Part shown: positions 13,961 through 46,730 of the stretch, piece by piece
How positions within the stretch are numbered: position 1 is the stretch's first letter
How the letters are laid out: each line of letters begins with the position of its first letter
Source of the DNA: an uncultured Selenomonadaceae bacterium
GTDB taxonomy: Bacteria; Bacillota; Negativicutes; Selenomonadales; Selenomonadaceae
Assembly (NCBI GenBank): GCA_902778455.1
Contig: CACYXR010000017.1
Location: 60,794-124,793 of the forward strand
Reading direction: 5' to 3'
DNA length: 64,000 nt
Notes under the pieces: model-generated
The model's input: the letters and a program-made list of their open reading frames with translations, nothing else
Told to the model about the DNA's origin: nothing
Databases searched by the model: none
Translations under genes and position numbers: made by a program

Positions 13961-14989
13961 ATGTGGAAAAAACTGATGAGCGCAATCCTGATTGCGGCTC
14001 TTGCCGTGATGACCGCAGCCTGCGGAGGAGGCGGCGGAAACTCCGGCAGCGGCGGCTCCGGCGCGCCGAAGAAAGAAACGAAAGTGGATCGCAGCAAAGA
14101 ATTTGTCACGGTATTGACCGGCCCGACCAGCGGCATTTATTTCCCGATCGGCGGCGCGTTCTCGAAGGTCATCGGCGAGATGGGCTACAAGACCTCGGCG
14201 ACGGCGACGGGCGCGACAGGTGAGAACATCAACGCAATCCTGACCGGCAAGGGTGAGCTCGCCATTGCGATGTCCGACTCCGTGATCCAGGCCGTGGAAG
14301 GCTTCGGAGCGTATGAGGGCAAGCCGAAGGCCACCGACCTTCGCGCGATGATGGGCCTCTGGCCGAACGTAGTTCAGATTGTCACGACGGAAGATTCCGG
14401 CATCAAGACCTTTGCCGATATCAAAGGCAAGCGCGTCGGCGTCGGCGCCCCGAATTCCGGCGTTGAGCTGAATGCCCGCATGATTTTCGAGGCCAACGGC
14501 ATGACCTATGACGACGCAAAAGTTGACTATCTTTCTTACGGCGAGGCCATCGACCAGATGAAGAACGGTCAGTGCGACGTGGCGTTCGTCACCTCCGGTC
14601 TCGGCAACGCAACCATCAAGGAACTCGGCACCTCGAAGAAGATCGTGTTCATCCCGGTGGACGGCGAAGCGCTGAAGAAGCTGACCGCAAAGTATCCGTT
14701 CTATGTCGAGTGGAAGATTCCGAAGGAAACTTACGGCACAGACAACGACACGGTGACAGCGGCAGTCATGAACATCATGCTCGTCTCGAAGAACCTGTCC
14801 GACGACGTGGTCTATGACCTCCTTGGCGGCATCTATTCCGACAAAGGACTTGAGACGATCGGCGCATCCCACGCGACGGCGAAGCGCGAGATCAAGCTTG
14901 ACACTGCTCTTCGCGGCATCAAAGGCACCAGCGTCAAGCTGCATCCGGGTGCGGAAAAGTTCTACAAGGACAAGGGTATCCTGAAGTAA
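13961..14989 (+). CDS. TAXI-family TRAP transporter solute-binding lipoprotein
   Basis: Lipobox (LAVMTAAC) and TGPTSGIYFPIGGA, typical of TAXI receptors. Followed by DUF1850 and a fused permease. Confidence 0.88.
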   Translation: MWKKLMSAILIAALAVMTAACGGGGGNSGSGGSGAPKKETKVDRSKEFVTVLTGPTSGIYFPIGGAFSKVIGEMGYKTSATATGATGENINAILTGKGELAIAMSDSVIQAVEGFGAYEGKPKATDLRAMMGLWPNVVQIVTTEDSGIKTFADIKGKRVGVGAPNSGVELNARMIFEANGMTYDDAKVDYLSYGEAIDQMKNGQCDVAFVTSGLGNATIKELGTSKKIVFIPVDGEALKKLTAKYPFYVEWKIPKETYGTDNDTVTAAVMNIMLVSKNLSDDVVYDLLGGIYSDKGLETIGASHATAKREIKLDTALRGIKGTSVKLHPGAEKFYKDKGILK

Positions 14990-14996
14990 CCCGCAA

Positions 14997-15500
14997 ATGA
15001 AAAAAAAGGCGGCTGCCGCGCTTTGCGCGGCCGTCGTCCTGCTCGCTGGATTGTGGGCGCTGAACGAGTTTTCGGCACAGACCGTGCTTCGGATTTACGA
15101 TTACGAAACGAAAGAAATCTATGTTGAAGTTCCGGCCAAAGAAGGCGATCAGCTTTTCTTTGGCTGGATTCATTCTTGGGAGAAAATCCCGTGGCACGAA
15201 TATTACCACATTGACGCGAACCACGACCTGATCCTCGACATGATCGCCTTCCCCGCTTTTGGCGCAGGCATTCCCGAAAATAAGGGCACCGAGGTTTGGG
15301 TGGACGACGACGGCATGATTTACATGAACAATATCAATCAGGTATTCCACGAATTTACATGGATCAACTCGCATTTCGCAACGCGGGACATCAAGCTGAA
15401 CGATGTCCTGATAGCGAAGGGCGAAACACTCCCCGAGCATACGCGGGTCAATCTCAAGGTAGTAAAAAGGAGATTTTTTGATGGCAAAGGAAACCGATAA
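14997..15500 (+). CDS. DUF1850 domain protein (TAXI-TRAP associated)
   Basis: 167 aa, signal-anchored, in the conserved position between the TAXI receptor and the fused TRAP permease. Confidence 0.7.
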   Translation: MKKKAAAALCAAVVLLAGLWALNEFSAQTVLRIYDYETKEIYVEVPAKEGDQLFFGWIHSWEKIPWHEYYHIDANHDLILDMIAFPAFGAGIPENKGTEVWVDDDGMIYMNNINQVFHEFTWINSHFATRDIKLNDVLIAKGETLPEHTRVNLKVVKRRFFDGKGNR

Positions 15501-17448
15501 TACGCTACTGGAAAGCGAAGAATCAAAGCGGCTCGAGGAAAAGTCCGAGGAAATTGTCCGGAAACTGGACAAAGAATCGGCGACACGCAAATTTACGAAT
15601 CCGTTGATGAAGAAAATCTTCTTCACCGCGTGCCTTCTTGTCTCCTGCTATCATCTATACACGGCGGCCTTCGGCCCACCCGTGACTCTGGTGCATCGCT
15701 CCCTGCATGTCGCGATGATTCTCGCGCTGGGCTTTTTGATGTACCCGGCGGGAAAAAACTCGGACATGACGAAGCCTTCCATCCTCGACTGGATTCTCGC
15801 GGCATTGTCTTTTGCCGCGCCGATTTACATTTATACAGACTACTTGGGCGTGGTAGAGCGAGCCGGCAATCCGAACCAGACGGATCTCTATATGGCAACG
15901 CTGCTCGTTGTGCTCGTACTGGAGTGTTCACGCCGTGTCACGGGCAACGCATTGGCGATTCTTTCCATCGTCTTCATCATTTACGGATTGTACGGACGGG
16001 AATTCCCGGGCATGTTCATGCACCGCGGCTATGACTGGGCCTCACTGTCGAACCATTTCTTCGCGAACACCGAAGGCATCTATGGTACGTCGGTCAGCGT
16101 CGCAGCCAGCTATATTTTCCTGTTCATCCTGTTCGGCGCCGTCATGTCGAAGTGCGGCATGGGGCAATTCTTCAATGATATCGCTCTGGCGCTCGCCGGA
16201 CATACGAAGGGCGGCCCCGCGAAGGTATCGGTCATCGCGTCGGGCTTCCTCGGCTCGATCAACGGCTCCGCAGTGGCGAACGTCGTTACCACCGGCGCGT
16301 TCACGATCCCGCTGATGAAAAAGACCGGCTACTCGAAGGAATTCGCCGGTGCGGTGGAAGCGGCGGCCTCTGTAGGCGGCCAGCTCCTGCCCCCGATCAT
16401 GGGCGCGGCGGCGTTCATCATGGCGGAAATGATCAGCGTCCAATACTCGACCATCATCACCTGGGCAGCGATTCCCGCATTGCTCTATTATCTGAGTATC
16501 GTACTGCAAGTGCATCTCCGCGCCTCGAAGGACGGTCTCGTCGGCCTGCCGAAGGACCAGCTGCCGAGGACAAGCGACGTCATGAAGCGGCGCAGCCATC
16601 TGCTGCTGCCGGTCATCTTCCTGCTTTACATGCTGTTCTTCTCCGGCACGACTGTCATTTTCTCGGCGGTCATGACGATCCTCGTCACGATTGTCGTCTC
16701 GATGTTCCGCGAGGAAACGCGCATGACGTTCTCCAGCTTCCTCGACGCGCTGGCGGACGGCGCGAAACAGACCGTCTCCGTGGCCGTGGCCTGCGCCTGC
16801 GTCGGCATCATCATCGGCGTCTGCTCGAAAACCGGCTTCGGCCTGACGATGGCGAACACGATTATCGCCCTCGGCTCCACGAGCCTGCTCTTTACGCTGT
16901 TCTTCACGATGATTACCTGCATGATTCTAGGCATGGGGCTTCCGTCGATTCCAGCCTACATCATCACGGCGACCATCGCCGCCCCGGCGCTTGCGAAGCT
17001 GGGCATCCCAGCGGGCGCGGCGCATATGTTCTCGTTCTATTACGCGATGTTCGCGAACCTGACGCCGCCGGTGGCGTTGGCCTCCTTCGCGGCAGCGGGC
17101 CTCTCGGGCGGCAACCCGATGAAGACGGGCGTCGCATCGGTCAAGTTGGCGATTGCCGGCTTTATCGTGCCCTTCATGTTCGTCTACGCGCCACAGCTGA
17201 TGCTGATCAACACTACCGTAGCCGAAGGCGCGTGGGTGGCAGCCAGCGCTTGCGTCGGTGTGTTCCTGATCGCCGTCGCCGTCGAAGGCTACCTGTTCAC
17301 ACCGATGGCGGCATGGCTCCGAATCATCGCGGCGGCAGGCTCCCTGCTCCTCATAAAGCCGGGCATGGAAACCGACGCCATCGGTCTCGCAGTGCTGCTC
17401 GTCGTCCTTTTCCTGCAAAAGAAAAAAGCAGGAAAAGCCATCGCGTAA
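15481..17448 (+). CDS. TRAP transporter fused small/large permease
   Basis: About 655 aa with many TM segments, downstream of TAXI/DUF1850. ATG at 15481 is preceded by AAAAAGGAG. Confidence 0.88.
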   Translation: MAKETDNTLLESEESKRLEEKSEEIVRKLDKESATRKFTNPLMKKIFFTACLLVSCYHLYTAAFGPPVTLVHRSLHVAMILALGFLMYPAGKNSDMTKPSILDWILAALSFAAPIYIYTDYLGVVERAGNPNQTDLYMATLLVVLVLECSRRVTGNALAILSIVFIIYGLYGREFPGMFMHRGYDWASLSNHFFANTEGIYGTSVSVAASYIFLFILFGAVMSKCGMGQFFNDIALALAGHTKGGPAKVSVIASGFLGSINGSAVANVVTTGAFTIPLMKKTGYSKEFAGAVEAAASVGGQLLPPIMGAAAFIMAEMISVQYSTIITWAAIPALLYYLSIVLQVHLRASKDGLVGLPKDQLPRTSDVMKRRSHLLLPVIFLLYMLFFSGTTVIFSAVMTILVTIVVSMFREETRMTFSSFLDALADGAKQTVSVAVACACVGIIIGVCSKTGFGLTMANTIIALGSTSLLFTLFFTMITCMILGMGLPSIPAYIITATIAAPALAKLGIPAGAAHMFSFYYAMFANLTPPVALASFAAAGLSGGNPMKTGVASVKLAIAGFIVPFMFVYAPQLMLINTTVAEGAWVAASACVGVFLIAVAVEGYLFTPMAAWLRIIAAAGSLLLIKPGMETDAIGLAVLLVVLFLQKKKAGKAIA

Positions 17449-17462
17449 TTTTCCGCAAAATG

Positions 17463-17499
17463 AAACCACCTTCCGGCACTTGTTGGAAGGTGGTTTTTT
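17463..17499. terminator. bidirectional rho-independent terminator
   Basis: Stem AAACCACCTTCC / GGAAGGTGGTTT followed by TTT, with AAAA before it, between convergent genes. Confidence 0.75.
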
Positions 17500-17518
17500 C
17501 TCGGCTTACATTTTCGGC

Positions 17519-17758
17519 TCAATCGTCGTCGTCATCATAGTAATCGTCATCGTCATCATCATCGTCATCATCATAACGATCATAATAATCGTCGAAATCG
17601 TCATAGTCATCATAGTCGTCATCATAGTCATCGTAATACCTATAAGTATTTGCATTGTTAGGCCGGTGATACGCGAATGCGGAATTCGAACTTCCGAAAA
17701 GCAGGGAAAAGCAAACAAACAGCGCCATTACCGCCAAAAACGAACGAATTTTCCTCAT
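17519..17758 (-). CDS. secreted, extremely Asp/Tyr-rich small protein
   Basis: ATG at 17758 preceded by GGAGAGGAA. Signal peptide MRKIRSFLAVMALFVCFSLLFGSSNSAFA. Predicted mature part: YHRPNNANTYRYYDDYDDDYDDYDDFDDYYDRYDDDDDDDDDDYYDDDDD. Confidence 0.6.
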   Translation of the reverse strand: MRKIRSFLAVMALFVCFSLLFGSSNSAFAYHRPNNANTYRYYDDYDDDYDDYDDFDDYYDRYDDDDDDDDDDYYDDDDD

Positions 17759-17874
17759 GCAATTCATTCCTCTCCCCTTTATGTTTTCAAAATCATGTTG
17801 ACTTTTTCCCCAAAAGCGTGATAATTCTCCGAAAGAAGTTATCGGCAAACTTCCTCATAAATATTCGAAACGTG

Positions 17875-18336
17875 TCAAAAATCCGAACCGCCGCCGAGAT
17901 TCCTGAACAAGTCGTCAATGCCCAGAGTCAGCGCGTCAAGGCTCTCATCCTGCCAATGTTCCCAAATGACCTTTGAGACGCGGTTGACAAGTTCATCGGG
18001 ATCGAAAGGTTTACGAATATAATCCGCCGCCCCGTATTGGACAGCCCTGATCACGGAGCTGCGATCCGCGGAAGCAGTCAGCATAATGACCGGAATCTCC
18101 TTCAGCAGCACGTTTTCTCGTATGACGGAAAGCGTCTTGAAACCGTCCCATCCAGGCATAGACACATCAAGCAGTACCAAATGTACCGTGTTTTTCTTCA
18201 GGATATCGACTCCGTCCATGCCCGAAGGCGCCGTCAAAACTTCGTATGATAGTTTTTTTGTCAAAATCCCTTTTGCCATCTGGCGACAGAAGTCATCATC
18301 GTCAATGACTAAGATAGTGATTCCGTTAGACGTCAT
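17875..18336 (-). CDS. single-domain (CheY-like) response regulator
   Basis: 153 aa. ILVIDDDDF, LVLLDVSMPGWDG, MLTA and RKP motifs. About 30-aa C-terminal extension. Confidence 0.85.
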   Translation of the reverse strand: MTSNGITILVIDDDDFCRQMAKGILTKKLSYEVLTAPSGMDGVDILKKNTVHLVLLDVSMPGWDGFKTLSVIRENVLLKEIPVIMLTASADRSSVIRAVQYGAADYIRKPFDPDELVNRVSKVIWEHWQDESLDALTLGIDDLFRNLGGGSDF

Positions 18337-18481: not shown

Positions 18482-20233
18482 CTATTCCTCCTCCGCTACG
18501 CAGACCCGATTTTTGCCTCCCTGCTTCGCTCGGTAAAGCGCCCGGTCAAGCTGCTGATAGAACTTCATGTAATCGCCGTCATCGGGGAATCTCGCGATGC
18601 CGAAGCTCCCCGTGACAGCCCTGCCGTCCGGCAGCACAGGATCGGATGCAAATGCCGCCAGGATCCGTTCCGCGACACTCTTTGCGTTTTCAAGGGACGT
18701 GCAGGGCAAAATGACGAGGAACTCCTCGCCGCCCCAACGTCCCGCCGCGTCGCTCCTGCGTATCTCATCATGAATAATCTTTGCGCGCTTTCGAAGGACA
18801 TCGTCCCCGACCGCGTGGCCGAAGGTATCGTTTACGTCCTTGAAATCGTCGAGATCGATCATGATGGCGGAGAGGACGTTATCGGTATTCCGTTTCTGCA
18901 TCAGTGCCTTCCGCAAAATGGATTCGATCTCGCCGCGATTGTAAAGCCCGGTGAGTCGGTCCATGCTGGCGAGCTGTGCAAGCTGTTCGTTGGCAATCTC
19001 CGATTCCGCCGAAGTGATCGCCACGAAATTCGCGAGACATCGAACCATCTTCATCATGTCGGTGAGCTTGTTAGCCCTCGGCGACAACAATACGACCGCA
19101 GGCGGCGACTCGCCCTGCGCCCCCTCGCGGAAACTGACGGACACCAGCGCCATATTCAGAAGCGAAACATTGCCGTTGTCGCTTCGGTTGACCTCCCCAT
19201 AAACATAGAAGCCTGCGTTCGGCGCAACCTTTTGGAACGGGCCAAGCTCCTGGCTCGTATCCTCGCGCAGGAAAACCCGCCGCGATACACAGTTGAACAA
19301 CAGGATCGCTTCCGGCTCAAAAGACAGGATATCAATCCGGGAGTTGTGGGCCGCGTCCAGGATTCTTCCGGGATCGCCGTAGGCCAGCCTTACGCTTTCG
19401 CCCTCACGGCAGTCGCCGCTGATGACCAGCGCCCCGTCCTCTCTGCAATCGGCGGGCAGGCGCATGATCAGCTTTCCGTCCCTTTCCATGCAAAGCGGGA
19501 ACAGCAAACTCCCCGCATCGATGTCTTCGTGGGAAAGCCCCAAATATTTCTGGTAAATGCTCTGCGCGGGATTGCCGTCCAATTCCCGGATCACATTTTC
19601 CCCGTCCATTTTCGTGATGCAAAACGACGGGCCGAGAGGCCGCCAGCCCACGCTGGTATCCACCTGAATGCGAAGCTCTTCGCCGATAAAAGCGACCGCG
19701 ACCGCCCCATGATAAAGCGCTCGTCCGCCCGCAATCACATATTGGCCGGATTCCCCGGTTCTGCCCGCGACGCCCCCGAAAACCTTTGCGCGGGCCGGAA
19801 GCGAATGAAGCCGGAAAAGGAACCGGTGCGTCGTTTCATTGTTTTCCGCCAGGAACAGCCCGACGCCCGCGACTTCCGTCTCTCGCAGCCCGTCTGCCAA
19901 TGACGCGGCGGCATCTTCCGGTGATGTTTCGGAAAAATCAAGCGCGAAAAGACGTACATCGGTTTTCTCGAAAAACATGAAATTCAAAATCGCCGTCTTC
20001 TCTGACAAGCGGCCGGACATAATCTCGCCGTCCGCAGTACACCCGACGACAACGGCCTCCGGCAGCATCTTCTCAATCCGCCGAACCAGCTCGGGCAAGC
20101 CTTCCCGATCGGGCCAACCGGAAAACACGGAAACGAGCACCGTCCGCGCTTCCCACGGGCAAATCCTGTGAAACGTTTGCGCCCAGGCTTCGAACTCTGA
20201 TAAACCCTTCAGGCAAAAAGAAAACTGTTTCAT
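18482..20233 (-). CDS. FIST_N/FIST_C sensor domain diguanylate cyclase (GGDEF)
   Basis: N-terminal FIST-like region (GGVAG..., WRPLGPSF..., NPAQSIYQKYLG). C-terminal GGDEF domain with GGEEF active site (RWGGEEFLVIL). ATG at 20233 preceded by AGGAGAG; the maximal ORF reaches 20260. Confidence 0.85.
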   Translation of the reverse strand: MKQFSFCLKGLSEFEAWAQTFHRICPWEARTVLVSVFSGWPDREGLPELVRRIEKMLPEAVVVGCTADGEIMSGRLSEKTAILNFMFFEKTDVRLFALDFSETSPEDAAASLADGLRETEVAGVGLFLAENNETTHRFLFRLHSLPARAKVFGGVAGRTGESGQYVIAGGRALYHGAVAVAFIGEELRIQVDTSVGWRPLGPSFCITKMDGENVIRELDGNPAQSIYQKYLGLSHEDIDAGSLLFPLCMERDGKLIMRLPADCREDGALVISGDCREGESVRLAYGDPGRILDAAHNSRIDILSFEPEAILLFNCVSRRVFLREDTSQELGPFQKVAPNAGFYVYGEVNRSDNGNVSLLNMALVSVSFREGAQGESPPAVVLLSPRANKLTDMMKMVRCLANFVAITSAESEIANEQLAQLASMDRLTGLYNRGEIESILRKALMQKRNTDNVLSAIMIDLDDFKDVNDTFGHAVGDDVLRKRAKIIHDEIRRSDAAGRWGGEEFLVILPCTSLENAKSVAERILAAFASDPVLPDGRAVTGSFGIARFPDDGDYMKFYQQLDRALYRAKQGGKNRVCVAEEE

Positions 20234-20428
20234 CGCGGCACTGCTCTCCTGCACATCCATCTTTCAAACAATGGCACAACATTATTCATTATTATTATTC
20301 GACGCTATGATTCAAATTCCTTCTAATTTTTATTATGTCGCTATTACAACTCACAAAAAAAGCGACTTGTATTTCCGGCAAAAAATCCCCCGCATCACGC
20401 GCAAAGCACAACACGTGGGATCTGTTTA

Positions 20429-21029: not shown

Positions 21030-21455
21030 ATGTTCTCTTATATTTGGCCGATTGCATTGGTCATTTTTTCGAATGTCATTTACCAAATCTGCGCCAAATC
21101 CGTCCCCAGAGAAATGAATCCCTTTGCCGCCTTGACCCTCACTTATCTCATCGCGGCAGCCGCTTCCGGGGCACTTTTCTTTTCCACGGCTGCAGATGGA
21201 AACCTATGGAAAGAATATGCAAAGACAAACTGGGCCTCTATCGTCCTCGGACTTGTCATTATCGGACTTGAGGCTGGATGGATTTATGCTTACAAAGCCG
21301 GCTGGCCTATAAGCACCGGATTTATCGTACAAAGCGCGGCACTCGCCGGAGTTCTTTTGCTGCTTGGCTATTTCCTCTATCATGAGCCGCTTACACAGAA
21401 CAAGATCGTCGGGGTAACCCTATGCCTGATCGGCCTCATTTTTCTGTTTCGATAA
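21030..21455 (+). CDS. small EamA/DMT-like membrane protein
   Basis: 141 aa with 4-5 TM segments. Resembles a single EamA repeat. Confidence 0.6.
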   Translation: MFSYIWPIALVIFSNVIYQICAKSVPREMNPFAALTLTYLIAAAASGALFFSTAADGNLWKEYAKTNWASIVLGLVIIGLEAGWIYAYKAGWPISTGFIVQSAALAGVLLLLGYFLYHEPLTQNKIVGVTLCLIGLIFLFR

Positions 21456-21565
21456 GATCGATCAGGAGACAGCGATTGGCCGCCGTAAAAGAACATCGAC
21501 TCACCGGCACAAGGACATCAAGCGATGGACCCGTTCCACGATTTCACAAAAAATGGGGAAACGTC

Positions 21566-22168
21566 ATGAAAAAGGAACTGCCCCACTTCGCGGTCGGCTC
21601 GGCTTATGGCGGATCGCAGGAATGGTGCACAGAACTCTGGATGTATATCGGAGGATGCGCCGCTGTTGCCGCCTGCGACAGCAGTATCTTCTTCATGCTT
21701 CGCAAAGACAGGAGGGAGCTTTATCCCTACGCCATAAGTGACATTTCACGCAAAGATTATGTCAATTTCACGGATATCATGAAGCCTTATCTTTATCCGC
21801 GGCAAGGAGGCATCGACCGACTGGACATATACATGGACGGTTTCGGCCAATTTCTGCGAGACCGGGGAGAAACGAGCATATCCATGTCTCCATGGCCGGG
21901 AGAAAAGGGTTTAATGGAAACGAAAGAAATCGTCAAAAAGCAGATCAATGACGGATGGCTCATTCCCAGCCTGACGCTTCTGCACGCCCACCCGTCCATG
22001 CAGGAATACGTATGGCACTGGTATCTGCTGACCGGCTACGATGAACAGGACGAAACGTTTCTCGTCAAAGCTGTCACATTCGGCGCTTGGCATTGGCTGG
22101 ATTTCTCGGTACTTTGGGATACGGGCTTCGAGCGAAAAGGCGGCTTGGTTCTTTATAACATGCCATAA
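21566..22168 (+). CDS. hypothetical protein, possible papain/C39-like cysteine peptidase fold
   Basis: About 200 aa. Candidate nucleophile region GGCAAVAACD and candidate His region HWYLLTGYD resemble C39-like peptidases. Motif-level only. Confidence 0.4.
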   Translation: MKKELPHFAVGSAYGGSQEWCTELWMYIGGCAAVAACDSSIFFMLRKDRRELYPYAISDISRKDYVNFTDIMKPYLYPRQGGIDRLDIYMDGFGQFLRDRGETSISMSPWPGEKGLMETKEIVKKQINDGWLIPSLTLLHAHPSMQEYVWHWYLLTGYDEQDETFLVKAVTFGAWHWLDFSVLWDTGFERKGGLVLYNMP

Positions 22169-25462: not shown

Positions 25463-26485
25463 TCATTCTTCCAAAATCGCCTTCAGCGTGTCCCAGTCGG
25501 GCTTTTTGGCCGCCTCTGTGATACGGGCGTGGCGCTCGGCTTTGTCCTTCGGCACGCGGCCGTTGGCAAGCTCCGTGAGTACGAACTGGATGCTGTCGTA
25601 GTCGAAGGACGCCGCCATTTCACGGATGGCTTCATAAGCTTCCCGGAGCGTCGCGTCGTCGATTTCCGGGAGGCCTTCATCATCCGCCTCCGGCTCCGCC
25701 AGCGGTGAGAGAGCCTCGCTGCAGGATTGATAGAGGTCCAGCAGTCCCGGCGTTTCCTTTTCAATTTTTTCTATGTCGAGGCTGTCTCCCGCGGCTTCCA
25801 GCTGTTTCGCCCACTCGGAAAGCTCCAGTACGCCGACGAGTCGTGCCGAGCTTTTCAGCGCGTGAACCTTCGTCGTATAATTTTTCCAGTCCTTCGCCTC
25901 GAAATAGCCGCGAATCTCGTCGGCATTTCCGGCCGCCGATTCCCTGAACATTCGGAGCACTCCGCAATAGTCCTCCTCCGAGCCGCAGTTTTGCACTCCA
26001 ACATTCACGTCAAACAGTTTCCCTGCTTCCTCCGATGAAAGCAGCCACGCGGGAAAACCTTTCCCGCTTTCTGCCTCGGCCCCGTCGTCTTGGGACACGT
26101 CCGCCCCGGCCAGCGTCACCAGCCCCGGCGGAAGATATTTGACAAGCATCGCTTCAAGCTGTTCGCCCTGGACAGGCTTCGTCAGGTAATCGTTGAAGCC
26201 CTGTTCGAGATACCATTCCCGCGCGCCGGAAATGGCGTTAGCCGTCAGGCTGATCACTGGCGTTTCAAGGTTTTTCCCTCCCGTCTGCGCACGCATGGCC
26301 GCAAGCGTTTCCACTCCGTCCATGTTCGGCATGCGGTGGTCGAGGAAAATCACATCGTACTTCTTTTTCGCCGTCAGCTCCAAAGCCTCCATACCGCTGC
26401 CCGCGTCGTCCAGCTGCACCTTCGTCGCCTTGAGCAGTCCCCTGATCACGGTGATGTTCATTTTCGTATCGTCCACCACCAGCAC
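25463..26485 (-). CDS. receiver + Hpt domains; C-terminal part of a disrupted hybrid histidine kinase
   Basis: REC (VLVVDDTKMN..., IFLDHRMPNMDG) and Hpt (HALKSSARLVGVLEL). No ATG start: the first codon is GTG. In frame with ORF 26615-28291 across a single TAG. Confidence 0.75.
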   Translation of the reverse strand: MLVVDDTKMNITVIRGLLKATKVQLDDAGSGMEALELTAKKKYDVIFLDHRMPNMDGVETLAAMRAQTGGKNLETPVISLTANAISGAREWYLEQGFNDYLTKPVQGEQLEAMLVKYLPPGLVTLAGADVSQDDGAEAESGKGFPAWLLSSEEAGKLFDVNVGVQNCGSEEDYCGVLRMFRESAAGNADEIRGYFEAKDWKNYTTKVHALKSSARLVGVLELSEWAKQLEAAGDSLDIEKIEKETPGLLDLYQSCSEALSPLAEPEADDEGLPEIDDATLREAYEAIREMAASFDYDSIQFVLTELANGRVPKDKAERHARITEAAKKPDWDTLKAILEE

Positions 26486-26614
26486 CTTGGCCTCTGGCGC
26501 GGTAAACCGCTCATGGTAAACCTCCTGCCGGGCTGCCGAACGGCGGAACGCCGTCTCGAAGTCCCCAATCGGCGTCCAATCGACAACGCGCTGCTCTACG
26601 GCAAAAGAAAACGT

Positions 26615-28291
26615 CTAACCCTCACCATAAACACTCTCAACCTCGAGATGGCTGTCCAACATTTCCAGAAGCCGTTTCGTAATGTTCATGCCAAGACCCG
26701 TGCCCTCAATGGTGCGGTTGCGTTCCTCCTCGATGCGCTCGAAAGCGTTGAACAGCTTTTCGAGGTCCTCGGACTTGATTCCAATGCCCGTATCCTTGAC
26801 CGAAAATCGCAGCCGGATGGTCTCGTCCCCCGTCTTGTCGAAGGAAACCTGAAGCGTCACGCCGCCTTTTTCCGTATACTTCACGGCGTTGGTCAAAATA
26901 TTCGTCGCCACCTGCTTTATGCGGATTTCATCGCCGTAAAGCAGCGTCGGCAGCTCCGGCGACGCTTCCACATGAAGCGCGAGCCCCTTCTTTTCCGCCC
27001 GCGTCTTGATCATGTTCACAAGATCGTTCAGTACGGAGCTGATTTCGTATTCGACGGGAATGATCTCCATTTTGCCCGCCTCGATTTTCGAGAAATCGAG
27101 GATATCATTGACAAGGCTCAGGAGGCTTGCGCTGGCGGTGCGGATATTCTCCGCGTACTCGCGGATTTGAGGCGCCGTCGCTTCCCTGCGGATCATTTCG
27201 TCCATGCCCATGATCGCATTGATCGGAGTGCGGATTTCATGGGACATATTCGAAAGGAATTGGGATTTCGCCACATTCGCCGCCTGTTCCCGCTGCGCGG
27301 ACTCGGCGAGTTTCGCATTGGATTCGAGGAGCGCCTGCTTGTGCTTTGCCAATTCTTTTGTTTTTCTCTCCAGAGCCAGGCTGGCCTCCTCCCTTTCCAT
27401 CATGCGGCGCTTAGCGTGGGAGGATTCCCGCACAAAGAACGCCACCGCCAGGAGAGCCGCCGCCGCTATCAAGAATGCAAGAATCCAGAGATGGTCCATC
27501 AACATATCGTACAGGGAACGGGAATAAAGCCCGCTGATATACCGACCGGTAAGTGCCTCCAACCGATCCTTGCCGATGACGTTCACGCCGCGGTTCAATA
27601 TCTTCAGGAGCCCTTCGTTGCCGATACTCACCCCGAAACAATGATTGTCGGGCCGATTCATCGGCTTCATGGAAAGCCCTCGAAACTTGCGGTTTTTGAG
27701 GATTTCGGTCGTTTTCAGGCCGTTGACCGTAGTATAGGACGCCTTGCCCTCAGCCACTGCCTCAAGGCACTCCTCGACGGATTGACAATAGAAAATCATG
27801 GCTTCGGGAAAATGCATCTTGGTATAGTAATACTGTATGCGGTTGTTCCTATTCACCGCGAAGGTCTGCGCAGCGCGGGACATATGTCGGCTGGACTCGG
27901 CGGTGAAGACAAGCTCCGAACTGAAAGACGACACGGGATTGGACTGACAGATGCCGCTCTCCTCCGAGAAAAACAGCCCGCCGCCCACGGGAAAAGCCAC
28001 ATCGATAGTCCCGTGGTTCATATCATTGACCATATCGTCATAATTGTTATAGCCGACATAGGAAACCTCAAGGCGCGATATCCCCAGTTCTTCCAGAATC
28101 ATCGGGACGAGGCTCTTGACAAGGCCCGTGGCGTCTCCATTGGCGTCCGTATCACTGTAAGGCAGATAATCCGCCGTAGACGTACTCATACTGCCAGCCT
28201 GTATATTCGGAAATCTTGCGGTAGTATTCATAGGCGTATCCCTGCCGTATAGCCCCCGGCTCCGCTCCTGCCTGAAAGGTTCCGTTCTCAA
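26615..28291 (-). CDS. sensor histidine kinase portion (SBP_bac_3-type sensor, TM, HisKA, HATPase_c) of a disrupted hybrid kinase
   Basis: H-box SHEIRTPINAIMG, N-box NILTNAVKYT, DTGIGI, GTGLGM. Ends ...SVYGEG-TAG, where the G2-box continuation TFSFAVEQ follows in frame. Confidence 0.8.
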   Translation of the reverse strand: MRTEPFRQERSRGLYGRDTPMNTTARFPNIQAGSMSTSTADYLPYSDTDANGDATGLVKSLVPMILEELGISRLEVSYVGYNNYDDMVNDMNHGTIDVAFPVGGGLFFSEESGICQSNPVSSFSSELVFTAESSRHMSRAAQTFAVNRNNRIQYYYTKMHFPEAMIFYCQSVEECLEAVAEGKASYTTVNGLKTTEILKNRKFRGLSMKPMNRPDNHCFGVSIGNEGLLKILNRGVNVIGKDRLEALTGRYISGLYSRSLYDMLMDHLWILAFLIAAAALLAVAFFVRESSHAKRRMMEREEASLALERKTKELAKHKQALLESNAKLAESAQREQAANVAKSQFLSNMSHEIRTPINAIMGMDEMIRREATAPQIREYAENIRTASASLLSLVNDILDFSKIEAGKMEIIPVEYEISSVLNDLVNMIKTRAEKKGLALHVEASPELPTLLYGDEIRIKQVATNILTNAVKYTEKGGVTLQVSFDKTGDETIRLRFSVKDTGIGIKSEDLEKLFNAFERIEEERNRTIEGTGLGMNITKRLLEMLDSHLEVESVYGEG

Positions 28292-30873: not shown

Positions 30874-31263
30874 TTACACCCACGAAACTTCTTCGCCGCA
30901 GCGGGAGCAAAACCTGTCGTCCGAGCGCAGGCTCTCGCCGCAGGACGGACAATGGCGCACCTCTTCCAACGCGCCCGTCGTTGTCTGCACCGCGCCGCCG
31001 ATACGGCCTTCCATCTGCCCAAAGCGGGCTTCCGTGATTTTCTCGTCCGCCGCCACGCGATCCCGAAGCTGCTCTTGCCCCATACGGAGTTCCGCCACGT
31101 CGCGCTCGATGGACTTGTCTGACACCAGCGCGAGCACGATGCCGACAATGATCGGGCTGAAAAACGCCGCCGCGATGCCCCATTTCCACTGGCTGCGCCC
31201 CTTCTTATCCGCGTAATATCCGACAGCCGCGCAGCAGAGAATCCAAAAAGCGAATTCAAACAT
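30874..31263 (-). CDS. membrane protein with C-terminal zinc-ribbon
   Basis: Two N-terminal TM segments, a coiled region, and a C-terminal CPSCG...CSRCG zinc ribbon. Confidence 0.55.
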   Translation of the reverse strand: MFEFAFWILCCAAVGYYADKKGRSQWKWGIAAAFFSPIIVGIVLALVSDKSIERDVAELRMGQEQLRDRVAADEKITEARFGQMEGRIGGAVQTTTGALEEVRHCPSCGESLRSDDRFCSRCGEEVSWV

Positions 31264-45378: not shown

Positions 45379-45563
45379 TGACGGGCCTCCTTTCTGCCTA
45401 TATGATAACTTAAAGATAATCAATAGTCAAGACATGGCAACGCATGGAGCATCGGGAGCTGCCATGCGAAACTGAAATGATCCTGTGCGTGTCAGGCGCC
45501 TGCCGATTCATTAAAAACCTGTAATGTGGCGAAAAGTGACGCCTACACCATGCCGGAATTATG

Positions 45564-45572
45564 TGCTATAAT
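45564..45572 (+). promoter_or_regulatory. extended -10 element (TGCTATAAT) upstream of the DUF362 gene
   Basis: TGnTATAAT match about 45 nt upstream of the ATG. The -35 is weak. Confidence 0.35.
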
Positions 45573-45617
45573 CAAACAATAGGATTACTTCTCAACCAAG
45601 AACAGGAGGGCATCTTT

Positions 45618-46730
45618 ATGAGCGAATTGACACGACGGGACTTCATCAAACTGGCTGGCGCGGCGGCGGCCATGACCGCGCTGCCGGGCTATGCCGGAGC
45701 GGCGGAAAAGGACGAGGGCGGCCGGGGCTCGGCGAAAAAGCCGGGCACGGGCGGCGACAAGTATCTTCCTTACGACAAGCGGACCGGCCCGGAGGCTTTC
45801 GTCTATTTCACCCGAGACCTTTCGGCGGCGGGGCTCCTGAAAGTCTTTGACCGCGTGAAGGGCGCTCTCGCCGGGAAGATTGCCGTGAAGCTCCATACCG
45901 GCGAGCCGGAGGGGCCGAACATCATTCCCCGCCCGTGGGTCAGGGAGCTTCTCGCCGAGCGCCTGCCGAACGCCGCCATCGTCGAGACAAACACCTACTA
46001 TAATTACGGGCGCTACACGACGGAAGACCACCGGAAAACTCTCGAGACGAACGGCTGGACCTTCGCGCCCGTGGACATCATAGACGCCGAAGGCACCGCG
46101 CTGCTTCCCGTGCCCCACGGCAAATGGTTCAAGGAAATGTCCGTCGGCAAGAATCTCTTGAACTACGATTCATTCCTTGCGCTGACTCATTTCAAAGGGC
46201 ACACCATGGGCGGCTTCGGCGGCTCGGACAAGAATATCGGCATCGGCTGTGCAGACGGCCGCATCGGCAAGAAATGGATCCACACCTATGAAGGCAAAGA
46301 TCAGTGGAGCATCAGCAAGGAAGAATTCATGGAGCGCATGACTGAATCCACCCAGGCGACGATTTCTTACTTCGCCCATAAGATCGCTTTCATCAACGTC
46401 ATGCGCAATATGAGCGTTTCCTGCGACTGCGAAGGCGTAAACGCCGCCCCGGTAGTGACGCCGGACGTCGGCATCGTCGCGTCCTTTGACATCCTCGCGG
46501 CGGACCAGGCCTGCGTCGACATGGTCTACGCGCTGCCGGAGGAAAGCCGTCACGACCTCGTGGAACGCATCGAAACCCGCCACGGTCTGCGCCAGCTTTC
46601 CTACATGAAGGAGATGGGCATGGGCAACGATCGGTATCACCTGATCGACCTCGACAACGGCGACGCCGAGATCACTGCCAAGGAAGCCGTCAAAGGCATC
46701 AGCGGCAAATGGGTTTACGACGGGCAATAA
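45618..46730 (+). CDS. DUF362 domain protein with Tat signal
   Basis: ATG at 45618 preceded by AGGAGGG. MSELTRRDFIKLAGAAAAMTALPG twin-arginine signal. DUF362-like core (IAVKLHTGE...). Confidence 0.72.
   Translation: MSELTRRDFIKLAGAAAAMTALPGYAGAAEKDEGGRGSAKKPGTGGDKYLPYDKRTGPEAFVYFTRDLSAAGLLKVFDRVKGALAGKIAVKLHTGEPEGPNIIPRPWVRELLAERLPNAAIVETNTYYNYGRYTTEDHRKTLETNGWTFAPVDIIDAEGTALLPVPHGKWFKEMSVGKNLLNYDSFLALTHFKGHTMGGFGGSDKNIGIGCADGRIGKKWIHTYEGKDQWSISKEEFMERMTESTQATISYFAHKIAFINVMRNMSVSCDCEGVNAAPVVTPDVGIVASFDILAADQACVDMVYALPEESRHDLVERIETRHGLRQLSYMKEMGMGNDRYHLIDLDNGDAEITAKEAVKGISGKWVYDGQ

Follow-up and report, generated by a model that had tools for sequence, protein, structure and literature searches.

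Proteins in which a signal peptide precedes very acidic, low-complexity disorder are known from eukaryotes, among them the Asp-rich cation- and mineral-binding proteins Aspein/Asprich, statherin and the tails of calsequestrin. An extremely acidic low-complexity composition is typical of low-affinity, high-capacity Ca2+ binding. Other short peptides that act outside the cytoplasm carry Tyr beside acidic residues, as in the Tyr-sulfated peptides of the RaxX/PSY type, or short repeats, as in the periplasmic His-X-Ser repeat effector, a repeat-containing precursor of the ribosomally synthesized and post-translationally modified peptides (RiPPs) (bioRxiv 10.64898/2026.01.06.697848). Here, these systems are compared with a gene for an Asp/Tyr-rich (D/Y) peptide on the minus strand of a 64,000-nucleotide stretch (hereafter the window) of contig CACYXR010000017.1, from an uncultured Selenomonadaceae bacterium. 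The gene very probably encodes a real exported member of a zinc-ribbon-related protein family, which is, as far as the recovered sequences go, unnamed, uncharacterised and restricted to Selenomonadaceae.

The resemblance to Aspein/Asprich, statherin and calsequestrin is one of analogy; these proteins are eukaryotic and have no sequence relationship to the window peptide. RaxX/PSY-type peptides and the His-X-Ser RiPP also share no sequence similarity with it, and the window has no nearby sulfotransferase or radical-SAM maturase. Zinc-ribbon proteins with one transmembrane (TM) segment and an ectodomain, which are TcaA-like, occur in Firmicutes, and two of them were recovered in an exhaustive phmmer search of 1.84 billion representative proteins: P0003 (194 amino acids, aa; E = 4e-5) and P0006 (265 aa; E = 1e-3). 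In both, an N-terminal C4 zinc ribbon and one TM segment lead to a juxtamembrane segment, AYHR..YFDDYDDYGDFFDDYYDFFDDD, with a similar D/Y/F motif that phmmer aligns to the window peptide. However, they are larger and come from other taxa, and the similarity may be compositional; their own matches to the TcaA N-terminus are weak (13-18 bits against a cutoff of 550), and TcaA membership is not established. Literature searches returned no described D/Y-rich bacterial peptide and no paper on the zinc-ribbon family discussed below.

The initial annotation had described a minus-strand open reading frame (ORF) with a good Shine-Dalgarno sequence (SD), and this holds. The ORF occupies 17519-17758 as 79 codons plus TGA, and its 79-aa product consists of MRKIRSFLAVMALFVCFSLLFGSSNSAFA followed by YHRPNNANTYRYYDDYDDDYDDYDDFDDYYDRYDDDDDDDDDDYYDDDDD. 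The unusual composition had likewise been recognised correctly; only the lengths need amendment, from 80 aa to 79 or 82 aa for the product and from about 49 to 50 residues for the mature part. An in-frame ATG at 17767, 9 nucleotides (nt) upstream of the ATG at 17758, yields the 82-aa product (MNCMRKIRS...). It is probably the true start, because orthologues begin with MYCM (P0002, P0010) or MYCV (P0004) and have their SD 4-5 nt upstream. In the window, a GGGGAG core stands 4 nt before ATG 17767, and a GAGAGG core stands 10 nt before ATG 17758. The elements of the gene are as follows.

17519..17767, minus strand: D/Y peptide coding sequence, 82 aa from ATG 17767 or 79 aa from ATG 17758, with stop codon TGA at 17519-17521.
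17769..17777, minus strand: Shine-Dalgarno-like GGGGAGAGG, read from the sequence, preceding both starts.
17672..17767, minus strand: signal-like or anchor segment, residues 1-32, with n-region MNCMRKIRS (+3), h-region FLAVMALFVCFSLLF and c-region GSSNSAFA containing A-x-A.
17522..17671, minus strand: predicted exported part of 50 aa, YHRPNNANTYRYYDDYDDDYDDYDDFDDYYDRYDDDDDDDDDDYYDDDDD, from composition and AlphaFold2 disorder.
17522..17644, minus strand: GAY/TAY codon-repeat tract with imperfect repeats of period 3/6/9/12/21.
17543..17572, minus strand: poly-Asp run, D10 in the window and D6 (P0001), D10, D11 (L007) or D14 elsewhere, the main site of length variation.
17588..17596, minus strand: F-D-D unit, which other strains have as L-D-D and L007 has lost.

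The 50 residues after AFA include 27 D and 12 Y (78% D+Y), for a net charge of about -24; if expressed, the peptide would be among the most compositionally extreme exported bacterial peptides seen. Its tail is unmatched in the 64-kb window, where its best 30-aa stretch contains 28/30 D+Y+E and the next best, in any frame, 14/30. Tandem Repeats Finder places overlapping arrays of period 3/6/9/12/21 over 17521-17634, in agreement with the earlier description of the coding DNA as a trinucleotide low-complexity tract. Tryptic peptides to be expected include PNNANTYR, YYDDYDDDYDDYDDFDDYYDR and YDDDDDDDDDDYYDDDDD.

The N-terminus resembles a Sec signal, with an n-region of +3 before the unbroken hydrophobic FLAVMALFVCFSLLF (about 12-16 residues are expected) and a candidate signal peptidase site, A-F-A / Y, that has small residues at -3 and -1 and no Pro at +1. 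Among orthologues of the peptide LFGS is nearly invariant, and in all short orthologues the -1 Ala is invariant and position -3 is A, S or T. An AlphaFold2 model built on a five-sequence alignment has a single helix over residues 3-31 and an unstructured tail (pLDDT about 50-57), and the tail is thus predicted to be disordered. From the positive-inside topology, together with the position of the basic linker of longer family members on the opposite side of the TM segment, we infer that the tail would be translocated by Sec; release by signal peptidase I is probable. Selenomonadaceae are diderm Firmicutes whose peptidoglycan is linked to polyamines, in Selenomonas to cadaverine (PMC5020339, PMC10628300), so a Sec substrate would enter the periplasm. 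A lipoprotein reading was rejected: there is no lipobox (L-[ASTVI]-[GAS]-C), and the sole Cys context is L-F-V-C-F (L-F-F-C-F in other strains). Of the canonical Sec signal cleaved after AFA that had been proposed at first, the signal-like N-terminus and the conserved A-x-A thus stand; the certainty of cleavage does not, since the segment is homologous to the membrane anchor of the family.

Relatives of the peptide were found at the same genomic position in related rumen bacteria. The phmmer search returned P0002 (73 aa, 57% identical to the window protein, E = 4e-17), the short D/Y form P0004 (84 aa) and the less repetitive P0005 (100 aa), the last two at E of about 5e-4 to 8e-4, and a profile search, which gave E values of 1e-24 to 1e-31, added P0007-P0011, including P0010. 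A word-indexed protein search gave one strain variant only; exact-sequence look-ups of the 79-aa and 82-aa products gave no match, nor did an exact 30-mer or degenerate family-alignment patterns in JGI metagenome contigs. The genes for P0002 (locus L087), P0007 and P0009 (L102, L103), P0005 (L093) and P0010 (L101) all converge on the 3' end of a DctM gene, as the window gene does, and the DctM proteins of these loci, where alignable, are 92-97% identical to that of the window. A common CCACCTTCC...GGAAGGTGG terminator is usually present as well. By sequence and position, the genes convergent to DctM in at least five related rumen lineages are positional orthologues of the D/Y gene. Together with the unnamed family to which they lead, they replace the initial verdict that no family could be recognised. 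The short orthologues P0002, P0004/P0007 and P0005/P0035 (MBR1761042.1, "hypothetical protein", Schwartzia sp.) resemble the window protein in architecture, size (73-101 aa), locus and a core [Y/H]-x-D-Y-D-[D/E] ... D-D-Y-Y-D, but identity is only 33-58%, and the tails of P0002 and P0005 are far less repetitive and contain E, W, H, G, P, M and S. Metagenome-assembled genomes (MAGs) of Schwartzia sp. carry annotated relatives of the peptide. A further sequence, P0016 (L100 1-531), pairs an AT-rich 5' half, with the different signal peptide MKKTMITMAILFAMIAAVFAGTAAPVYA, with a 3' half that is 95% identical at the DNA level to the tail and terminator of the window. This suggests a chimeric 531-bp assembly through the repeat, or else a recombinant with a swapped signal peptide, and P0016 was not used as evidence.

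The link to a zinc-ribbon family comes through P0010 (167 aa), which occupies the same syntenic slot and comprises a PF13240 zinc ribbon (MYCMNCGEKL...CSRCGE), a basic linker, the segment SLLAGTALGLFFSRLFGSSPVASA and a long D/Y/E/W-rich tail. A search with P0010 recovered ten more proteins of the same architecture (P0018-P0027, 144-188 aa), one of which, P0022 from a MAG, has the NCBI name "zinc ribbon domain-containing protein [Schwartzia sp.]"; PF13240 is detected in P0010 and in P0018-P0026. Pfam finds no PF13240 zinc ribbon in the window protein, where only M-N-C-M is left at the N-terminus. Short and long forms have in common the LFGS(S) end of the hydrophobic segment, small residues after it and first residues M-[YN]-C-[MV]. 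The window hydrophobic segment FLAVMALFVCFSLLFGSSNSAFA fits the family pattern LAGTA..LF.S.LFGSS followed by small residues, and the 50-aa window tail falls within the Asp/Tyr-rich acidic C-terminal tails of about 50-80 aa that mark the family. Within the Schwartzia-like clade, the DctM-convergent position is common to the window, L087, L093, L101, L102 and L103; the most distant long form, P0026, is not beside the TRAP operon.

To compare the two classes of protein, a profile was made from the long forms only, and the short forms were scored against 500 shuffles each, with hydrophobic and tail segments shuffled separately. P0004 (40.6 bits) and the core of P0005 (27.2 bits) were equalled by 0/500 shuffles, the window protein scored 13.8 bits over residues 7-33 (20/500 shuffles as high) and P0002 scored 6.1 bits (174/500 as high). 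The attachment of the window protein to the family, marginal in this direct test, is well supported by way of intermediates (P0002, then P0004) and by shared synteny. On the simplest reading, the window gene would be a zinc-ribbon-less variant that arose by internal loss of the zinc ribbon and linker; the change may instead have run in the reverse direction. Like the family, the window protein has the LFGSS hydrophobic segment, the small residues, the Asp/Tyr-rich tail, the M-[YN]-C-M start and the slot of P0010. Unlike the family, it has no C4 zinc ribbon, no basic linker of about 40 aa and no His-rich stretch; its tail is far more repetitive, and the hydrophobic segment lies at its N-terminus and has a clean A-x-A. 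The product may therefore be cleaved and set free instead of staying anchored. A search of the 64-kb window for a second family copy found only an unrelated zinc-ribbon protein at 30874-31263 on the minus strand, a 129-aa ORF whose hydrophobic segments are N-terminal and whose C4 zinc ribbon, HCPSCGESLRSDDRFCSRCGEE, is C-terminal, an architecture unlike that of the long forms.

Searches of domain and structure libraries gave little. Pfam and NCBIfam had nothing above cutoff for the D/Y peptide, and matches to AtcA, WGxxGxxG, ELH and Mfp-3 were rejected as compositional and far below their cutoffs. A profile search of the PDB gave only the acidic tail of ObgE (E = 0.55). Rfam had nothing above threshold; its sub-threshold PrrB/RsmZ match at 17739-17853 on the minus strand (23.2 bits against a gathering score of 44, E = 0.0075) covers the GGA-rich leader and the gene start, and is probably due to chance.

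The same Rfam null bears on the possibility that the tract is non-coding repeat DNA, or that the product is instead the I/V-rich ORF of the opposite strand (17480-17821, plus strand). In the window that antisense frame runs without a stop for 113 aa, and it is open in L007 and L102 too. Its openness is automatic, however, since GAY/TAY read in antisense gives RTC/RTA; the frame begins at a TTG within the terminator hairpin, it has no SD, and stops interrupt it in L087. The D/Y frame alone is open in all lineages. The antisense ORF was thus rejected as the product, which upholds the first choice of the minus strand, and we give this explanation as a whole next to no probability.

In the D/Y frame, replacements between lineages are of Asp by Glu and of Tyr by Phe, His or Trp. 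In their DNA, P0002 and P0005 have ceased to be trinucleotide repeats, and the protein is therefore not a mere by-product of the trinucleotide tract. A substitution-only simulation left such an ORF open at 25% divergence in 18% of trials per lineage; its retention in several independent lineages argues for purifying selection on the open acidic-aromatic frame. It is charge and aromatic content, and not the exact sequence, on which selection appears to act.

Variation among close strains was followed with alleles found through their identical receiver protein, which is encoded directly upstream and has identical copies on many bovine-rumen metagenome contigs; among genome records, MAGs of uncultured Selenomonadales and Selenomonadaceae are nearest. 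Gene callers call the D/Y gene in every related contig (L001-L007), downstream of the same receiver. In addition to the D6/D10/D11/D14 alleles of the poly-Asp run and the gain or loss of F/L-D-D, the terminal Asp run is D5 in the window and D4 in other strains, and P0033, from a sister lineage, carries a 7-aa in-frame duplication, YYDDFDD. The in-frame length variation by slippage that had been thought plausible is thus borne out. All repeat periods are 3n, and every slippage allele stays in frame. A phase-variable on/off contingency locus, which needs a repeat unit other than 3n, was rejected on this ground; by the same token, frame retention alone does not prove selection. Between the window and other strains, divergence peaks at 17400-17750, with about 30 mismatches/300 nt against 0-2 per 150 nt in the flanks, and the receiver gene with its 116-nt spacer is 100% identical. 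Elsewhere, the TAXI binding-protein gene (13961-14989, plus strand) is 6.6% divergent between the window and L002, whereas DUF1850 and DctM are only 0.4% divergent, and L004 has a further patch of divergence at 16500-16800. The strain genomes are recombination mosaics.

On this evidence we favour, with moderate confidence, the reading that the D/Y gene is genuine, a truncated, fast-evolving and lineage-restricted family member that would place a tail of about -24 in the periplasm and whose function we can only infer. Several observations weigh against it. The peptide gene is dispensable in at least one close relative, L008 (RUG12289), where no remnant of it is detectable although the cyclase, a receiver of 73% identity and a DctM of 95% identity are all present. 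The single out-of-frame allele, of the P0004/P0007 type, is in L103 (365-550, P0009): an 85-nt deletion relative to L102, as distinct from slippage, puts the D/Y tract in an M/T frame. It may be a natural null allele or, as the contig has 1.7x coverage, an assembly artefact. Another allele, P0034, is truncated. The codon usage of the peptide gene is atypical, at TAT 10/TAC 2 and GAT 15/GAC 12 against TAT 26/TAC 28 and GAT 40/GAC 60 in its neighbours. The pN/pS ratio is about 0.5 in 42 non-repeat codons (7 non-synonymous and 4 synonymous changes), compared with 0.13-0.20 in the neighbouring cyclase gene; with 11 changes between effectively two haplotypes, it is not decisive. As to the family link, direct comparison of the window protein with the long forms gives marginal similarity (p about 0.04), and BLASTP of P0010 against P0002 is not significant. 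The link therefore runs through P0004 and P0005 together with synteny, and the case for M-N-C-M as a remnant of MYCM draws on synteny, the profile scores and the first four residues. Finally, in most long forms the homologous hydrophobic segment is followed by A-P, which is not cleavable by signal peptidase; cleavage of the short form is accordingly plausible but not assured.

Much of this would fit a decaying remnant, in which the zinc ribbon has been lost, constraint has relaxed, the tail drifts into a slippage tract and a functionless ORF is heading to loss. The missing gene in L008, the damaged alleles of L103 and P0034, the raised pN/pS, the divergence peak between strains and the atypical codons would all be expected of such a remnant, and slippage in 3n units yields in-frame indels anyway. 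Yet the ORF, the SD, the positive N-terminus, the hydrophobic core and A-x-A are retained in three short-form lineages whose mutual identity is only 38-58%, the replacements are conservative, and the P0005 lineage gene has its own extended -10 promoter. The chance of neutral ORF survival, about 0.18 per lineage, does not yet count indels, and the L103 frameshift may be an assembly error. We judge decay an improbable account of the locus. Beside the L008 gap, two observations may be recorded: at L008 3619-3870, about 200 bp of unrelated sequence separate the receiver terminator from DctM, and on the minus strand this stretch resembles part of a coding sequence (SYEEAMKLRTIVMGGGETGIEKDGLIAYMDSILHD), after which comes a second hairpin.

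The same variability could also be read as that of a hypervariable envelope decoy or shield, diversified under selection by cationic bacteriocins, antimicrobial peptides or phage, with variation supplied by repeat alleles and domain turnover. The locus varies at strain level beside nearly identical neighbours, its genus-level identity is 33-57% against 92-97% for DctM, gene presence and domain content both turn over, and the predicted product is exported and extremely anionic. However, pN/pS is below 1, no defence or bacteriocin genes are adjacent, and relaxed constraint on a disordered tail fits the same pattern. Diversifying selection of this kind is, in our estimate, a little less probable again than decay.

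The reading as a genuine family member also has to be placed in its transcriptional context, for which the features beyond the gene are listed here.

17457..17496, both strands: bidirectional intrinsic terminator hairpin, ACCACCTTCC-N10-GGAAGGTGGT, from its fold and from conservation in L102, L093 and L008.
17875..18336, minus strand: receiver-only response regulator, 153 aa (Pfam PF00072), directly upstream of the D/Y gene.
18482..20260, minus strand: FIST-GGDEF diguanylate cyclase (Pfam), upstream of the receiver, given as context only.
13961..17448, plus strand: TAXI-TRAP operon (NMT1_3 binding protein, DUF1850, fused DctM), from Pfam and synteny, convergent to the D/Y gene.

The TAXI-TRAP operon is the constant neighbour of all positional orthologues. 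The 12-bp hairpin, at about 17463-17496 and 22 bases past the D/Y stop codon, has a folding energy of -24.6 kcal/mol (z = -3.8), with 0/200 shuffles as stable. As the convergent TRAP gene, with its end at 17448, lies on the other side, the hairpin is read as a strong, bidirectional terminator. No terminator was found in the 116-nt spacer between the receiver and D/Y genes, and the two are probably co-transcribed. Besides the window, L087 and L103 have the receiver immediately upstream, with spacers of 49 nt and 39 nt respectively. It was not found beside P0005 in L093, where the genes upstream differ and the peptide gene is preceded by a strong SD and an extended -10 promoter of its own, and none occurs within the 105 nt available upstream of P0010 in L101. 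In L008, a terminator directly follows the receiver. The adjacency to a receiver pointed out in the initial annotation thus recurs upstream in three lineages but is not a constant link, as two lineages lack it and L008 has the receiver without the peptide.

A receiver and a c-di-GMP cyclase upstream raise the possibility of a secreted signal to the adjacent receiver/c-di-GMP module, and the many D-Y-D contexts that of a peptide modified at Tyr by sulfation or cross-linking. Receiver and peptide genes do adjoin in three lineages with no intervening terminator. Against such roles, the roughly 5 kb examined to each side encodes no sulfotransferase, radical-SAM enzyme, peptidase or dedicated exporter, the receiver comes and goes independently of the peptide as described above, and the receiver and FIST-GGDEF proteins match only receiver, FIST and GGDEF domains in Pfam, with no periplasmic sensor domain detected. 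RiPP leader peptides, moreover, normally lack Sec signals. We regard a modified or signalling peptide as very improbable. Membership among RiPP precursors or RaxX-like peptides was itself rejected, as no maturase is adjacent: the neighbours within about 5 kb each side are the receiver, FIST-GGDEF, EamA, CheW-REC, DUF1848 and TAXI-TRAP genes.

Farther upstream, Pfam identifies EamA, CheW-REC, DUF1848 and hybrid histidine kinase genes. Between EamA and CheW-REC lies a 248-aa ORF (21422-22168, plus strand; 200 aa as called in L001) without a Pfam match. The hybrid histidine kinase (25463-28291, minus strand) has an in-frame stop at 26615-26617 in the G2 box of its HATPase domain (ESVYGEG*TFSF), which leaves a 558-aa HisKA-HATPase ORF and a 340-aa REC-Hpt ORF in place of the single 984-aa product of L001; a nonsense mutation, a split gene or an error in sequencing might explain the stop. 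In L093, LysR, MFS, flavodoxin-like and DUF362 genes stand in place of the cyclase and receiver, so that rearrangement has affected the flank facing away from the TRAP operon. The DUF362 gene (45559-46723 in the window; 2414-3572 in L093) and the peptide locus are about 28 kb apart in the window but about 5 kb apart in L093.

Returning to the reading of the gene as a truncated, exported family member, a course of events may be proposed. The host would be an uncultured, Schwartzia-like rumen member of the Selenomonadaceae, a diderm Firmicute. The full-length form of the protein would have a cytoplasmic C4 zinc ribbon, a basic linker, the hydrophobic segment LAGTA..LF.S.LFGSS and an extracytoplasmic, disordered, polyanionic tail rich in Asp/Tyr(/His/Glu/Trp). 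In the window lineage the cytoplasmic part would have gone, with M-N-C-M the remainder of MYCMNCG. The hydrophobic segment, now N-terminal, after three positive charges and before A-x-A, should work as a Sec signal peptide or, failing that, as an N-in anchor; whether cleaved or anchored, the 50-residue tail of net about -24 would lie in the periplasm. The tail would have been homogenised to GAY/TAY codons, after which replication slippage or unequal recombination gives in-frame length alleles in co-existing strains, and transcription would run from the upstream receiver gene to the bidirectional terminator that the gene shares with the convergent TAXI-TRAP operon. The product might act as a free or membrane-tethered periplasmic polyanion that binds Ca2+/Mg2+, other metals or possibly polyamine-modified peptidoglycan, through its bulk charge and with Tyr/Asp (plus His in the long forms) as ligands. 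Cation binding, argued from composition alone, is a tentative suggestion and a rather doubtful one. A bolder proposal is that an anchor was converted to a cleavable signal within one genus-level clade, releasing a strain-hypervariable polyanion that serves as a cation/polyamine sink or decoy, maybe from an operon under receiver/c-di-GMP control; this must be called speculative and unlikely.

The family is known so far only as generic "zinc ribbon domain-containing" or hypothetical proteins, with no characterised member. What the locus may offer is a natural series at one position, from a zinc-ribbon membrane protein to an N-terminally shortened form, a repeat-homogenised secreted peptide and, finally, loss. 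Such a series would be useful for understanding the origin of small secreted proteins from membrane proteins, the evolution of disordered tails constrained in composition only, and the way in which codon-repeat slippage makes in-frame length polymorphism in natural populations. If true, a periplasmic role in cation or polyamine binding would also bear on the unusual envelope of diderm Firmicutes.

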